Below are positions 3,033 to 51,904 of a stretch of 64,000 nucleotides of DNA, piece by piece. Each line of letters opens with the position of its first letter. Position 1 is the first letter of the stretch. The position numbers were made by a program, and so were the translations under genes. The notes under the pieces are model-generated. The model did not search any database and was not told where the DNA came from. It was given only the letters and a program-made list of their open reading frames with translations. Source of the DNA: Octopus vulgaris (Eukaryota); NCBI GenBank assembly GCA_951406725.2, contig OX597824.1, forward strand, positions 94,736,001-94,800,000, read 5' to 3'.

Positions 3033-6000
3033 CTGAAACAAAAGAGAAAAAAATACAGTTGGTTGGATTTTTATTAAGTCACTGTATAGGCACAGGAGTG
3101 GCTGTGTGGTAAGTAGCTTGCTTACCAACTACATGGCTCCGGGTTCAGTCCTACTGCATGGCACCTTAGGCAAGTGTCTTCTACTATAGCCTCAGGCCAA
3201 CCAAAGCCTTGTGAACAGATTTGGTAGACAGAAACTGAAAGAAGCCCCATTATATGTGTGTGTGTGTGTATATATATATATATGTTTGCCAGCCTGGTTG
3301 GATTTTTATTAAGTCACTGTATAGGCACAGGAGTGGCTGTGTGGTAAGTAGCTTGCTTACCAACAACATGGCTCTGGGTTCAGTCCTACTGCATGGCACC
3401 TTAGGCAAGTGTCTTCTACTATAGCCTCAGGCCAACCAAAGCCTTGTGAACAGATTTGGTAGACAGAAACTGAAAGAAGCCCCATTATATGTGTGTGTGT
3501 GTGTATATATATATATGTTTGCCAGCCTCCCCTGTGTCAGTGACACGTAAAATAATTGTTTAAAATGAGAGAAATAACTGTCAGCTAGTTAAGGAAAACA
3601 AAAAAGAAAGAACAATACTTACTCTGAGATTGGCATTTAAATGAGAACCACCAGGAAACTTTTTTATATTCCATACAATTTGTTTATTAGAGGCTTTTAA
3701 TTCTATAGTTTGATCAGGTCCAATTAGCTGTTGGCTAATCCTGGAATAAGTTGAAGGAAAAACAAGGATTAGGATTAAAACATCTGAATTGGTAACAAGT
3801 CTAAGAATGAAACCATTCAAAAGAAATTAATTAATGGTTATTATTTGTCAGTGAAAATGGGTTTGCATTGGCCTGACACACCTTCCTAGAAAAAAGCAAA
3901 GTTACAGAAGTATCGATGAGAATTCAAAACCAACAAAGTCTAGGAGAGGAAGGCCTTCCCTCGGGGAAATATATAAGGGTGGCTCCATGCCATACTGAGG
4001 GAGTGGCCCAGCAGCCAAGAACAGTGGGGAAAAGTCACTCCTTAGGGAGTAAAGGGCTCAGGTAACTAAGATGGTACGTGTGATTTGAGGGGAAACTTTT
4101 GCTGCTATTTCTAACAGATCAAAAAACCATGTAGAGTTCCCTCACTGGCTTGAGCCCTTAAACGTAGAGGAAAGTACTGTGCTTTTTAATAAAAGTGAGA
4201 TGTGATTTTCTGAACTCAATAAAAACTTTACAGTTTACCACCATGAGGTCCATTCAGAAGAACCAGAAAATGCTGTGCCCACCACTACAAAAAAGAATGG
4301 CTCGTAGTTTCCAATTGCTTATCATATCTAACACTGGTTAAAACTGAAGAAGAAATGACATCAGTTCATCGTGGAGATTTTGTTCTGTCAATTAGATTAC
4401 TGGTCTTTGAGAAATGTTACAATGTAAATTACGATTCTAGTGGATCTTGGCAAGGATGAAGTTTCATTCAGCTGAAGGCAAATACATCATGGGTCATTAC
4501 CCAGGTAGTATTACACTGCAAGGGGATGTGGGGTTAGTGCCAAAAGATGCTTATATCTTTACAATCTCCAAGAAACAGCTTTTGATAATAGGAATGTGAA
4601 ACAATGTAATCTGTATGTATACATATAAGAGACAGCAAGTGGAACCCTTTCCATAGGTGAAGACTAGCTCAGTCTTTGCTGCCCCACTCAGGTGAACAGT
4701 ACAGGCTAAGGGGTGAAATGCTTGTGACCCTGAGATACTGGCTGATGACACAGAAGTGTTTCCAGCATTGTAATGGATTTAGAAGAGCTTTCAGAACATT
4801 AGAATACCTTTTGTAGTTTCTGCATGGAACAAAGCATCTCTGATGCTTTTTTCACCTGTGTATATATATATTTTCAGAATGAGATAAAAATCCAAGGCTA
4901 TGAAAGATTTCAGAACATTTATGAATAGGTCTTACAGCTGTTTGGGGGATATTTTATACATCCCTTCATTGGAGACAGTGTGAGAGAATGGTTAAGCAAT
5001 AGTTATTTTAGATAAGGTATGGAATAGAGAATGAAGTGGAGGAATGAAAATAAACGTGAGATATGCAGGGATATTGCATCTGTAGATCCATTATTTAGGC
5101 AGAATGGTAAACATAAGATTCCAGTACCTTGTGAGCAACTTCCAATAGTATATATATATATAGAGAGATCACTAGTTGGGAAGAAGGTGTACTGGTATAT
5201 TGAATATCAAACAAAATAATTCTTGACTTATTCTGGGGAGGGGAAATAATCTTGAGAATCAAGAATTCTTCAAAGGTGACATGCCATTAAAGAAAAGGGA
5301 CAGATTCATTATTTGGAGATAAGAGGACAGTTGTGGACATGTGCTTCTGGTCCAACAGTTGTCATCATCATCATCACAAGAATTGTCTGACCTGACCCCT
5401 CCAGCAGTGGAGGGACTGCGCTAAATATAATTCTGTTTCTAGATTCATTTCGGGGAAACAAATCCACAATATGACATTACAGAGATTAAATACCAGTAAA
5501 GTAAATGTAAAATTCTGTTTCAAGTCCTGGGACTCACAGGACTGGTTATCCAGTTTCCATGGGGTGTGAGTAACCAAAATCACAACATTCCCTTTAAACA
5601 GGATGCCAGTCTGTCACAGAGTTACTCATTCACAGCTGAGTGAACTGGAGCAGGAACACAATGCACTGTCCAGTCCAGGTATTGAAACAACAATCTTATG
5701 GCCATGAGTCCACCATCCTAACCACTAGACCATGCACTTCCACAATTAAGTATCAAAGTGATATTAAGGTAACGAGCTGGCAGAATCATTAGCACACCGG
5801 GCAAAATGCTTAGTGGTATTTCATCTGCCGTTACGTTCTGAGTTCAAATTCCACCAAGGTCGACTTTGCCTTTCATCCTTTCAGGGTCAATTAAAATAAG
5901 TACCAGTTACGCACTGGGGTCAATATAATCGACTTAATCTGTTTGTCCCCTCTGTGTTTAGCCCCTTGTGGGTAGTTAAGAAATAGGTATTTTGTCCGTC

Positions 6001-14976: not shown

Positions 14977-17900
14977 GAGCAAACCCCCCTGTCCAATGGA
15001 CGGTGCTGAGTTGTCAAACATTTAAACCAGATTTTCTCAAAACAACTTGTCCGACCATCCCATAGGCCTCCCCTTTGAGAAACACTGATTTAACCTAAAT
15101 TTGAGACACCAGCAAAAGACAGATTTCAGCTGATGTACTTGTGCGTACAAATGCACGTTCCCACGGCTTTATCAATCGCATTCTCACCTGGAATCGAATT
15201 TTGTAATTTTTTCAAGACTTATACATGCCCTGATACTGTCGGTATCTACATATCAAATTTGAGTGCAATCAGATGGAGGATGCCCGAGATCCTAGAAGAC
15301 ACACAGACAGACAGACAGAATGGATTTTATATAACAGATGTTTTTTATAATTCTGTTTTATATTTAACTGTCTTTTAGATTGCTTTATTTTGCCCTCCCT
15401 AACTCTGTAGTTTTGCCATAATAATCTAATAGATAAGTTGGTTGAAACAATTATATAACAGGGAACCAATTCATCCCTTTTTGGTGAAATTGTCTTGCAG
15501 CAAAATTTCCTATGGCAAAATTTCCTGTGGCCAAAATTCCTGAGTTGAATTTACCTGTGGCAAAAATGTTCATGTCAAACTTTCAGGACATGGTTAGTAC
15601 TGGTGACATAAATAGGTGGTAAGGTTTATTTCATAAATAGTATGGAAAGCAACATTAAGATTAGAAGTTAGTATTAGTTTGTTAATTAAGCAGTTAATAA
15701 ATGTAAATTGAATTTAGGATGACTTCTATGTTAATGGAATCAGTATGATAACGACACACAGATGTCTAAATACATGCTGGCTAATTAACTAAACATCAGA
15801 TTTATTGCCATCGTACACATTAAATTCATGATTAAATTAGATGTTGTTAATAACATTACAATTTAGAATGGCAAACTGGTAGAATCGTTAACATGCCAGG
15901 CATCTGCCTTAACATTTTGAGTTCAAATTCTGCCACGGTCGAATTTGCCTTTCATACCTTCAGGGTCCATAAAATAAGTACCAGATGAGCGCGGGGGTTG
16001 ATGTAATTGACTTACCCCCTCCTCCACCAAAATTTGGGACCAATAACATTAGAATTTTCTGGTCTTCTTAACGTCTTCCATAAGTATGTATCATCATCAC
16101 CATTCTCCTTTAATGTCCATTTTGCTGTGCTTGCATGGGTCAGATGGTATTTGTTGAGGTAGATTTTCTATGGCTGGATGCCCTTCCTGTTGCCACCCCT
16201 TACTGGTTTCCCATCGCTGGGCATGTTTCTCGCGAAAGACTAGAAACGAACAACCTTTCTTGCATGATGGTGTTTATTAACCACCATCAGTTGATTTCTA
16301 AACATGGCTATACACAAGAACATACATACATACACAGACACATACATATATATACAAACAGTATATATTCAGTTTCCATCCACCAAATCCACTTACAGGC
16401 CTTCAGTCAATCTGGGGCCATAGTAGAAGACACCATCCCAAGGTGCCACACAGTGGGACTGAACACAGGACCACATGGTTGGGAAGTAAGCTTCTTAACC
16501 GCACAGCCATGAAATGTTGCAGGATTTGGGAAAGACAGTGATGACGTTTGAATGTTTACCCTATATACTACATCGACTTGCAATGCCAGAAAATATGGTA
16601 ACCAATATGGTTTGAATACTACTAATCATACTAATCGTACACAGCTCAACCAATACTTATTCCATTTGGATTTCAGGTTTAAGAAAAGACAGAAGTTTGT
16701 TGCATAGATGTTCTGTGTATATACGTTGACACAAGTGACAAAGAGCACTAGAGAGAGATATTTACCTGTTCCACAGCTGTTCTAACAACAGGTTTACTTG
16801 AAGCAGAACTTGGAGCCACTCTGGTTTCTATTCCAAACTGAAACAGAGGGAAAAACTATCTTTTAACTGCCAATGGATAAGTTTCTTGGGTATTTTTCAA
16901 AGTTCCATTTCCCGTTTCAGATTGTCAGGAGATAATTACCTCCCTTTGTAATAACTGCCACGTGCAGTCTTCAGGGTACTTCTGAATAAGAAGTATACTA
17001 AAGGCGGTGCTCCAGCATGGCCGCAGTCAAATGACTGACATAAATAAAAGAGTAAAATTTTAGCCAATAGTTCTAATATTGGACGGTAGCCTCTTGTAGT
17101 CCAGGAAAGATAGTTCTGCAATTTCTTACCGAACAACCTGCAGGAATGTTTTGTTTATAATGGTCAAATGTATGTGCTGTACATTAGCGCTCCCTTCATC
17201 AAACTGACACTACCTGTACAGGTGTACCACACTTCAGGTGTTGAAATGATTGCAGAGTAATTTGTGATGAAGTGTTTTACTCAAAAACACAATGTACCAC
17301 CTGGTCAACGAATTGAAACCATGGTCTTAGGATCTTGAGTGCAAAACCTTAACCTGTAGGCTATGAGCCCTCAACAGTTCTAAGATTAATTATTCAGTAT
17401 CTAACCAAATGTGTTCTGCTTCTTCTCGGTATAACATTTCTTTTCCACATGCATAGGACGAAAATCAGTCATCACAGTTTGTCTTACTTTTTAAATAATT
17501 AATGTCAATGAAGAGGGCCTTAATGATGTTGATGAAGTTCAGTTTGAATGTCTGTGGGTTAATAATCTGTGGAAAAAAATCAGGAAAGAAGGCAGGACGG
17601 AAGGAATGAAGGAAGGGAGAGAAAGAGGGAATTCCAAATGGTCACATTCCTAAAACAGAAGTATAGTGCAGAGTGTTGGGGTTTCAGGCGCTTCAAGGAT
17701 AGGGTCATTGAGAAGAACAGCATTTAGGAAAGTTAGTGTTTCAGCCAGGGACACAAGACAGCAAGGGTAGTGATTAGTACAAACAATTCAAAATGACAAA
17801 GAATTCAAACCCTGTGTTAGCTGAGTTGGTGGAGTAGAGTGGGGGCAGAGGGGTGGAGGGGCTTGAGGAGTTGTGTACAGTTAAGGTACTGGAAAGAAGG

Positions 17901-48711: not shown

Positions 48712-48984
48712 TTAATTGTATAGATAGATGTGTGTCTGTGTGCACATAAATATGTAATTGGATATATTTGACTATGCTTGCATGTGTGTATATGGAATTA
48801 TATTCAGGTATATCTATGTGTGTGTGTGTGTATATATGTATAAGTATACACGAGTGTGTGTGTATGTGTATTATGTATAAATACATTTAAATAAGGTATA
48901 TGTATTATGTATATACATATAAGAATATATGTATACCCATACATTTGTAGTTATGTATACTTGTATATGTTATACATATTTCTA

Positions 48985-49094
48985 GTGGCGTGCTCCTGTA
49001 ATCCAGCTACTCGGAGGCTTGGTTGGTTGACCGGTTTGAGGATGGGAGCCCTGGTAGTCGGTCTTCTATGGCGATCGGGTGTCCACGCTAAGCT
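48985..49094 (+). pseudogene. 7SL (SRP) RNA-derived sequence, 5' ~110 nt only
   Basis: GTGGCGTGCTCCTGTAATCCAGCTACTCGGAGGCT...TTGAG...GGAG...CTATGGCGATCGGGTGTCCACGCTAAG is collinear with the 5' part of metazoan 7SL RNA as recalled; the S-domain core and 3' end are absent. Confidence 0.85.
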
Positions 49095-49154
49095 AAATGG
49101 CGGTGCCCCAGTATGGCCACAGCTCGTGAGCTGAAACTAGATAAAATAAAATAA

Positions 49155-49155
<1 letters not shown>
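48985..49155 (+). mobile_element. Chimeric 7SL-head retroposon with a SINE family 1-type tail
   Basis: The 7SL part is followed directly by AAATGGCGGTGCCCCAGTATGGCCACAGCTCGTGAGCTGAAACTAG and (TAAAA)n. Confidence 0.75.
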
Positions 49156-49185
<30 letters not shown>

Positions 49186-49711
49186 TTCATTACGTCAGTG
49201 TTCTGTGATCAGTAATATCCCCCTGTCTTTGTATCTCTGTAACTGGAATCTAATAATTGGCATAGCAAGATGAGTGGTAGCTACATAGACTTCAGGTTTG
49301 ATTTCAGAGTGCTTTCTCTGAGACTTTTCACATCAAAGGGTTCCTCGAAGTCAGCCAGGTTTTCAGAAGAAACATATTTGTGTGTGTTATTGGATGGCCA
49401 TTGGCTCTCTTTAAGTTCATTCGCTCTTCAAATGTTCCTGTATTTTACCCCTCTCTGTCCAAAAATCACCCTCTCCATCATGTGAACCAGGTACCCCAGT
49501 GATGCAACAGGTTGTAGTGTTGTATTTACCATTAACACTGAAGAGTGATCTTACACTGTGTGTGTGCATCTATATATTCTTTTTTTTCAAATTCTTTTAT
49601 TTGTTTCAGTCATTTGATTGCGGCCATGCTGGAGCACCGCCTTTAGTTTAACAAATCGACCCCAAGACTTATTCTTTGTAAGCCTAGTACTTATTCTGTT
49701 GGTCACTTTTG

Positions 49712-50470
49712 CAACTTGGGAATCTCCTGTAACGCTTTTGAATGGTCTCCTTGTTTGAGTTAGGGAATGCTGCTATAATCCTTGCCTTCAGTTCATCTTT
49801 GGTGTTACAAGGAATTTTGTTGGTCTCTTGTTCAACTGCATTACACACATAATCAAAGGGGTTGCAGTTTGGGTAGTTATATAGACAACAAGGAGTTTTG
49901 TTGGTCTCTTGCTCAACTGTACTCCACACATAATAATCAAAGGGGTTGCAATCTGGGTAGTTATTGGGCCAGATGTTAGGAGTGATGTGGTTGCAGATAT
50001 TGTGTGACAGCCATGACTGTGTTCTGCTTATGTGGCATGATGCAGAGTCCTGTTGCCAGACATAGGGTCTTCCAGCAGCCACCTTCTTGACCCAGGGCAG
50101 CACTACCTCCTCCAGGCACTTGATGTAGGCCTCCGTGTTGAGTGTGAGGTCGTGTGGGAAGATGAATGGAGGCATAATGTTGCCATCACTAGTGATCTCT
50201 CCAAACACCATGATGTTGACTGGTTGTTTTGATTTTTATCATTCTCTGTACATATTTTAGAGAACGGCTGTTCTCTGTGTTCACTATCTGTTCATGTTGG
50301 AGCTTCTGGTGCGAATGCCAAGCAGTGCAGCATGTTGCTTCCAAATTTCTGGCAGAGTGAATTGCTTCATGGTGCTACTATACTGTGTAGCCGACAAAAT
50401 CAAAAACCAAAAATGTGCATGTGCGAAATTAAAAATATAAAATGGTGACAATTTACACATTGCACCCTAT
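49712..50470 (-). mobile_element. Decayed Tc1/mariner-superfamily (DD37D/maT-like) transposon
   Basis: Encodes MVFG.ITSDG...YVWQQDSASCH...IWPNNYPDCNPFDYYVW; TIR-like TATAGGGTGCAATGTGTAAATTGTCACC at the right end; short internal duplication. Confidence 0.85.
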
Positions 50471-50849
50471 ACACACACACACACACATGCAAAAGAAAAC
50501 ATGTTTGTGCATGCAAGTTGTCATATATTTCAATAACAAAGAAAAATACCAGTTATACGAGGGGCATCCCTTCTTTAAGTAGTGAAAACTGATCTGTAGC
50601 GAAGATGACAAGATGCTGGGTAATTTGCTGTGCTTGAAAGGACCCATCCATCACAGCAAAAGTGATGTCCTAAAAACCACCTCAGTTATACATGTACATG
50701 TGGGGCTCTGCTCCCCCCTCCTTTTTTTGTCTTGTCAAGCATTTCCCACATCTCATCCCCTAATACCCACCATTCTTCTGTCTATGGTACTATTTGACTG
50801 CTGTAATCACTTCTGATCAGACTTGGCACATATGATATCCCTCACTTTG

Positions 50850-51200
50850 TGCTTCCAGGGGCCTTGACAGCCTGGGATACTTTTGTGTCAGCATAGCTGG
50901 TGAGAGTGGCATTGACTATGTCTGAGAGAGCCACCTGGTCCCAGCACAGTTCCCTGAAAGACTGCACTTGGTATTGATGTCTCTTCGGTCAGAGCACCAC
51001 TGGCAGTGTCTGACTGCTGCCTTTTAAATGCAGCCACTTCCTTAATTCTCTGATACCAAGGTCATGAAGTTTGTGGCCTCATCCCATGATTGGCTTTGAT
51101 GAAGAAATCCTTAGCAAAGTCTGGATGATACACCACATCCATATTTGAATGGTTAAGCAGTTGTTTAAGTACCCAGTCATAATAGAATCTGTGGGTGAGG
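50850..51200 (-). mobile_element. CR1/L2-type reverse transcriptase relic
   Basis: MDVVYHPDFAKDF (compare D.VY.DF.KAFD) and QGTVLGP motifs, frameshifted. Confidence 0.65.
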
Positions 51201-51904
51201 CAGAGAATATTATGAACAAGTGTTGAGGGATGATGAAAAGGGAAGAGGGAAGTGTGGGTGACAACCGTGGAAATTGGCTGACTAGGGATACATGAGTTGG
51301 GAGAAGTAGTAGTAGTAATCCTTTCTAGTATAGGCATAAAGCCTGAAATTTGGGCAAGGAGGCCAGTCAAGTAGATTGATTCCAGTACGCAACTGGTATT
51401 TAATTTATTGACCCTGAAAGGCTAAGTCGACCGTGGCAGAATTTGAACTCAGAACGTAGCAACAGGCAAAATGCTGCTAAGTATTTTGTCCAGTGTGCTA
51501 ATGATTCTGCCAGCTCGCAGCCTTAATAATAACGATAATGATGATGATACAATAGACGAGGAAGAACAAAAAAGAATAGGTGAAAGGTAGAGAGTGGGAT
51601 GATATGTTGGGTAGGTTTATAAGATTGTAGGACAGATGTAATGAACGAGGGATAAGGAGAGAGAATATGGTGGCTCAGGGGCATGATCAGTGGAAAATAT
51701 GTGTGGAGAGGGCAGTGTTAAGAATGAATGGTGAACAACAGTGGAATGGTTTTAGGGAAAACCTGAAGCATGTAGTTCTGCTTTGCATTTGATTACAGCA
51801 ACAGGATGGTGATGTTGGAAAGATGATAGGTGGTGGGAATGTATCGAGGGGGGAAATTTGGTTGGGGAATGAGAAGTTTTGCACATTGTGCCTACAGAAT
51901 CTCT

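Follow-up and report, generated by a model that had tools for sequence, protein, structure and literature searches.

A 7SL RNA fragment joined to a LINE tail in Octopus vulgaris: a probable single chimeric retrocopy within a genome-wide class of small RNA and short-tail chimeras

The window analyzed here is a 64,000-nt stretch of the Octopus vulgaris genome (assembly GCA_951406725.2, contig OX597824.1, positions 94,736,001 to 94,800,000 of the forward strand). Within it, part of a 7SL RNA runs straight into the 3' end of a LINE, with no spacer between the 7SL head and the 46-nt tail. The following features were identified:

48985..49094 (+): 7SL (SRP) RNA nt 11–120 (Rfam RF00017, E 2.5e-05; 108/110 identical to gene L004)
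49094..49095 (+): head/tail junction, unique in the genome and placed where 5' truncation of the LINE is most frequent
49095..49140 (+): tail A, the last 46 nt of the 3' UTR of an APE+RT LINE (45/46 identical to LINE copies)
49141..49155 (+): (ATAAA)n, terminal repeat of the donor LINE subfamily, from the sequence; LINE copies end likewise
49156..49178 (+): (TA)n run, from the sequence, as in the flanks of many tail A LINE copies

Sequence and coordinates of 48985..49155 were as described in the first-pass annotation, whose reading of the head as about 110 nt of 5' 7SL RNA was borne out. The head differs from gene L004 (nt 11–120) at two positions in 110, and this 98% identity to the genome's own 7SL genes settles what it is. 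7SL nt 1–10 and everything beyond nt 120 are missing. The junction shows no microhomology with gene L004. The Metazoa_SRP model suggested earlier as a check did match, at 48981–49160, but with 27.7 bits against a gathering score of 70, a shortfall due to the absence of two thirds of the 7SL RNA. Rfam at the gathering threshold and ARAGORN each returned no matches in the window. As first reported, the copy is alone in the window, with no further 7SL part found elsewhere in it, downstream of the head included, and the TA-rich flanks hold no target-site duplication (TSD) above chance length. The copy is young, with three differences in 156 nt. Numbering transferred from human 7SL, where the available text of PMC7245038 puts the Pol III A box at 6–15 and the B box at 76–86, places the B box region inside the focal head; half of the A box is gone, as nt 1–10 are absent. 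We predict that the focal copy is dead, since it has neither that half nor the Alu domain's 3' strand.

Tail A folds into two adjacent hairpins (fold z −2.2), and the junction lies 3 nt 5' of the first stem, which begins at 49098. As the junction falls 5' of the conserved stem in this fold, we rejected a location in an upstream hairpin loop. A 183-aa frame at 49684–50235 (−) resembles the C-terminal part of a Tc1/mariner transposase.

The tail pattern occurs in 4215 exact copies genome-wide, and 10 of the first 30 share sequence upstream of it, up to at least 1.5 kb. One LINE copy (L072) carries a 956-aa frame with RVT_1 and Exo_endo_phos; in another the frame reaches its stop just before the tail. 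The focal tail agrees at 45 of 46 positions with LINE copies L044, L060, L061, L126 and L131, versus 33–40 of 46 for the eight other pattern-found tail-like sites in the window, which are SINE tails. The donor is thus the LINE. The homology to the 3' end of SINE family 1 proposed at the outset stands, but that SINE is not the source, and the match to five LINE copies names the donor that the first-pass annotation had left to be found. This donor is a young APE+RT LINE, and the window SINE shares the tail only by descent. A PDB search with the LINE protein returned only distant L1 and R2. A C-terminal motif and the short tandem 3' repeats suggest that the LINE may be CR1-like. The L072 frame (L072:517–3387, −) opens, ahead of the endonuclease, with a Cys/His-rich stretch that drew no Pfam call and resembles a CCCH zinc finger. 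The window also holds decayed RT fragments at 50845–51202 (−), with 41% identity to the protein of the tail A LINE. Tail A copies L046 and L047 (G000:C1:4337682–4337901) form an inverted duplication with two tails head to head, and in L061 the LINE 3' end is followed by its own reverse complement. An abundant donor LINE with the same 3' end is a published mark of chimeras (PMC4494074, available text). Here there are 4215–5374 tail copies, and 31 of 100 carry at least 100 nt of LINE.

The genome searched comprises 2.8 Gb in 227 contigs. Its 7SL genes (Metazoa_SRP scores 232–246 bits, T-run at the end) lie mainly in a tandem array on C5. At G000:C5:143.06–143.12 Mb the array has 13 genes (L004–L006, L010–L016, L018–L020), spaced ~3–5 kb apart and with mostly common upstream sequence. 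A U6 3' end lies ~12 kb past the array (C5:143127860). Across the whole genome, the 5' part of 7SL was found at 31 exact sites, or 50 allowing up to two mismatches, and the 3' part at 55 sites allowing up to three; the counts of 50 and 55 include genes. All 50 5'-part sites and five more were read, giving 55 loci (16 gene-like, 39 dispersed); about a dozen 3'-part places fall outside this set.

The first-pass annotation had offered two readings, an Alu-like 7SL SINE family or a one-off chimeric retrocopy, with many copies of the same junction expected of a family. A pattern joining 7SL nt 103–120 to the tail motif within 12 nt returned one match in 2.8 Gb, the window itself (control, 0). The best 39 other genomic DNA matches have alignments ending at or within two bases of the junction, and the 29 of these examined all carry on as 7SL. 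According to the available text of PMC7245038 and PMC13023118, SINE1 elements keep the Alu domain by bringing the two ends of 7SL together over a central deletion. The focal copy does have a 7SL-derived head. It holds only nt 11–120, however, with no 3' end joined over a deletion; the A and B boxes are not both intact, nt 1–10 being absent; and one junction match and 50–55 7SL sites fall short of many dispersed copies with one junction. The 3'-truncated dispersed copies (n = 9) end at nt 93, ~106 (two), 118, 120, 170, 191, 213 and 223, with partners that vary from copy to copy. Together with the unique junction, these differing ends and partners refute an Alu-like family and support a one-off chimeric retrocopy. 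A hidden, more diverged family was also rejected on the 50 (≤2 mismatches) and 55 (≤3) sites, the search reaching up to ~15% divergence. Had it held, no 7SL SINE outside chordates would have preceded it in the literature surveyed.

Three of the 39 dispersed loci had been found only with a tail-demanding pattern and were left out of the tally of partners. Among the other 36, a short tail follows 16 (eight type A, three B, three C, one D, one E), a longer SINE piece three, a tRNA-type SINE 14, and nothing evident three. None of the 16 gene-like copies is followed by a short tail. One 7SL haplotype was found with three tail types (A, B and C) and with a SINE; its five tail A copies (L009, L023, L025, L026 and L035, all full-length 7SL) carry four tail alleles and differing T-runs. 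Varied tails and mixed alleles on one haplotype therefore indicate repeated, independent chimera formation. The common haplotype and tail of these five copies could also be read as the founding of a 7SL-derived SINE family, or as retrotransposition of a full-length 7SL and tail copy. In L023, L027 and L035 the tail is not preceded by a T-run of at least four, which could allow Pol III readthrough. We find this highly improbable: it is refuted for the focal copy by the unique junction, the 7SL halves have just 50 and 55 sites with genes included, the five copies differ in tail allele and T-run, their haplotype is found in front of tails B and C and of a SINE as well, and the copies have no internal deletion in common.

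The haplotype is common to eight retrocopies (L009, L023–L026, L034, L035, L080). Its nearest gene-like copy is the lone L029 (C5:124.16 Mb) and not the array. None of the genes read has its allele at position 262, which implies a source gene that has changed or is absent. Between 7SL and a full tRNA-type SINE, L080 (G000:C5:6529522) carries the first 18 nt of the SINE five times in tandem, a pattern suggestive of repeated jumping, or of slippage, at the SINE 5' end. An old 7SL copy, L083 (82%; G000:C3:101671798), is internally deleted for nt 124–205 and followed by a SINE; among the loci read, it alone has a large central 7SL deletion.

The extent of LINE sequence 5' of the tail pattern was measured in the first 100 tail copies by position (start of C1), duplicate pairs L046/L047 and L164/L165 included. 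The 100- and 30-copy samples thus follow position along one or two contigs and are not random draws. The extent was 1–7 nt in 15 copies, 8–11 nt in 47, 12–29 nt in 4, 30–99 nt in 3, 100–394 nt in 10 and at least 395 nt in 21. Hence 47 of the 100 end inside one 4-nt window, compared with 17 across the following 383 nt, and the modal extent of 10 nt (22/100) is exactly the focal junction position. Short tail-only copies numbered 64 of 100. Bias of the search pattern was rejected as the source of this peak: a pattern for the 3' half of the tail found 5374 copies, and only three of the first 30 are cut within the first stem. A sister LINE with tail C (1958 copies, 61–77% amino acid identity to the tail A LINE) gave 15 long, 15 short and no intermediate copies among 30. 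Its commonest short ends, judged by eye, lie 1–3 nt before its own first stem. As tail C also stops before its stem, which differs in sequence from that of tail A, the stop is tied to structure. Tail B may have the hot spot too: at 17003 (+) in the window, a tail-only copy of this SINE-type tail begins at the corresponding position ahead of the stem. In each of four public runs, loose ends accumulate at 49094–49099, with tail-homologous repeats mixed in, in weak agreement with the hot spot. This truncation point is common to thousands of tail-only copies and to chimeras with U6, tRNA and full 7SL.

Other small RNA heads were found on the same tails. A T-run stands at the junction in 8 of the 64 short copies, versus 3% of control positions. 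The heads of these eight are three U6 and two tRNAs by Rfam, and three read as tRNA 3' ends with trailers. By our own reading, L122, L136 and L157 are short tRNA-like 3' ends. Rfam head identification covered 60 of 70 added loci and 20 others. It recovered L058 (G000:C1:10209772), which ARAGORN missed without intron search: a tRNA, presumably tRNA-Leu, with an intron-sized insert, a T-run and a 3' trailer joined to tail A. A pre-tRNA as template at L058 points to a nuclear step.

U6 followed by a short tail gave 54 pattern matches genome-wide with at least three tail types; five of these are one duplicated event. A survey that made no demand for a tail covered the first 30 of 185 U6 ends: seven array genes, 14 with a short tail (nine events), six running into the start of a full tRNA-type SINE, two into nt 1 of another U6, and one followed by nothing. 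No short tail stands behind any of the seven array genes. More than a tail of LINE A or C was found behind none of the 30 U6 ends or 55 7SL loci, in contrast to 34 of 100 tail A copies that extend at least 30 nt. A T-run target preference as the reason for SINEs behind U6 and 7SL was rejected, as a T-run precedes only 2 of 34 other SINE heads. Several U6 loci have structures of their own: a chain of a tRNA-like sequence, a 5'-truncated U6 and the first 36 nt of U6 (L260, G000:C1:187750243); a full U6-U6 dimer joined at nt 1 (L264, C2:23366750); seven U6 genes arrayed at ~1.1–1.4 kb spacing (L250–L256, G000:C1:139.42 Mb); and a ~20-kb segment present six times, each with the same U6-tail chimera (L244–L249, C1:132.42–132.53 Mb).

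The focal chimera belongs to a genome-wide class of independently formed small RNA and short-tail chimeras. In these, the small RNA stands directly 5' of a 5'-truncated LINE in the same orientation, and junctions and partners differ among copies. The class and its fixed junction lay outside the view of the first-pass annotation. Chance adjacency of head and tail is excluded by the numbers and by the lack of tails behind real genes. Insertion of a tail-only LINE copy into or beside an older 7SL fragment is very doubtful. Tail-only copies are common (64/100 short) and nested SINE insertions into 7SL do occur (L033, with a 20-nt duplication), but ~5400 tails in 2.8 Gb give an estimated ~1e-5 chance per junction, sense tail A stands on 8 of 36 dispersed 7SL copies and none of 16 genes, and the remainder of 7SL was not found downstream. 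The focal junction comes from this assembly alone. Among the listed contigs of the four public runs, none spans it and none shows an empty site for head and tail; in three of the runs no listed contig has the focal private allele at 49049, and contigs drop variants. An assembly artefact joining two repeats is nevertheless hard to credit, given the private alleles in the head, a junction at a biologically defined hot spot, dozens of analogous junctions on many contigs, and the fact that unitig contigs break at repeats.

We consider the focal element to be a single chimeric retrocopy, more likely than not made in one insertion, in which the LINE reverse transcriptase jumped to a 7SL fragment after copying its 46-nt tail. 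The LINE protein would bind the 3' stem-loop and prime at an AT-rich nick. Synthesis of cDNA would end 1–3 nt past the first stem; the likeliest template is a short tail RNA trimmed to the protected stem, and a strong enzyme pause at that point is an alternative. Next, the enzyme would jump to a 7SL fragment whose 3' end is nt 120, in an end-to-end manner, or else into the RNA at that position. It would stop at 7SL nt 11, and the cDNA would be joined to the target without a clear TSD.

End-to-end joins of U6 to U6 and of U6 to SINEs, at exact 5' ends, favor jumping over ligation. Set against this, the focal junction is internal to 7SL and has no T-run, unlike most 7SL chimeras here, which leaves room for an RNA break and ligation, or a later deletion, in the focal copy. 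Ligation first, with 7SL cut at nt 120 joined in RtcB fashion to tail RNA cut at the fixed site before one insertion, seems unlikely. The clean focal junction without microhomology suits it, and so does a fixed 5' end, as a nuclease cut might leave. The same genome, however, joins U6 to the first base of U6 (2/30) and to the 5' start of Pol III SINEs (6/30), and its pre-tRNA and 7SL heads finish in the T-runs of nascent transcripts. U6 and Pol III SINE 5' ends are not expected to carry a 5'-OH, and the T-run ends of nascent transcripts are not known to be cyclic-phosphate ends. In its available text, PMC6789731 describes U6/L1 chimeras made by ligation in human cells and allows this for 3'-truncated small RNAs; the RtcB route joins a cyclic-phosphate end to a 5'-OH, and a 5' triphosphate blocks it. 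Template switching is the other published route (PMC4476161, available text).

Insertion of full-length 7SL with tail, followed by loss of nt 121 to the T-run through DNA deletion, is rather improbable. Full-length 7SL copies with tail A exist (eight besides the focal copy among the 55 loci), and old copies L080, L083 and L030 have internal deletions. Against this, the copy is young (3 differences in 156 nt), and such a deletion would need to reach precisely to the first base of the tail, with the T-run lost in full.

Under the preferred reading of a jump during reverse transcription, if jumps are end-to-end the fixed junction would mark a real RNA 5' end just before the stem; an enzyme pause fits equally. 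Either a short RNA of defined extent or a fixed stop of the enzyme is thus to be expected, and the junction marks the minimal RNA recognized by the LINE. We tentatively propose, as a possibility that we would not yet favor, that these LINEs shed a discrete ~50-nt tail RNA with its 5' end set by the protein-bound stem-loop. This RNA would be the commonest template (about half of insertions) and a portable adaptor added end-to-end to any abundant Pol III RNA. If so, the genome would be a standing record of SINE birth attempts, with tRNA, U6 and 7SL each joined to a minimal tail, and the few terminator-free 7SL and tail copies would be proto-SINE1 elements in an invertebrate. Gain of a LINE tail by a SINE is usually taken as a rare template switch; here a head and a minimal recognition tail were brought together dozens of times, at one structural point. 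This bears on how SINEs acquire a stringent LINE 3' tail.

Comparison with known systems draws on the available text of the papers cited. SINE1 families (Alu, B1, Tu, Urop and hagfish SINE1-1_EBu) have a 7SL-derived head, as does the focal copy (PMC7245038, PMC13023118), and hagfish SINE1-1_EBu also has a LINE-derived tail and a microsatellite end. These families have thousands of copies of one structure with both 7SL ends kept, whereas the focal element is a single copy without nt 1–10 and the 3' Alu strand. P7SL_MD and P7SL_Cpo are, like the focal copy, 7SL retrocopies not shown to self-transpose (PMC7245038). They are full-length, carry poly(A) and are very numerous, whereas octopus 7SL copies are few and end in stringent LINE or SINE tails.

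Platypus U6-L2 and U6-Mon-1 and lizard U6-L1/L2/RTE chimeras resemble those found here more closely in arrangement: a small RNA lies 5' of a LINE or SINE 3' end in the same orientation, events are independent, TSDs are short or missing, and the platypus L2 part is short (PMC4476161). The octopus differs in being an invertebrate, in having 7SL and pre-tRNA heads as well, and in the fixed 5' end of the LINE part, 1–3 nt before the tail stem in two sister LINEs, for which the available text of PMC4476161 gives no counterpart. Mammalian U6/L1 and 7SL/L1 chimeras likewise have 7SL, tRNA fragment and U6 heads, some 3'-truncated, and both template switching and ligation have been proposed for them (PMC6789731, PMC11838501). 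Their L1 part has variable 5' truncation, poly(A) and 6–19 bp TSDs, whereas none of the 55 7SL or 30 U6 loci in the octopus has a long LINE piece. The available text of the literature surveyed, including PMC4494074, PMC4758252 and PMC9115989, mentions no 7SL or U6 chimeras in cephalopods and no fixed truncation site before a tail stem; a prior description elsewhere is possible. Small RNA/LINE chimeric retrocopies are a kind already known from vertebrates; what sets the octopus chimeras apart is the invertebrate host, the range of Pol III RNAs used as heads, and a junction whose position the tail stem-loop fixes in both LINE families.
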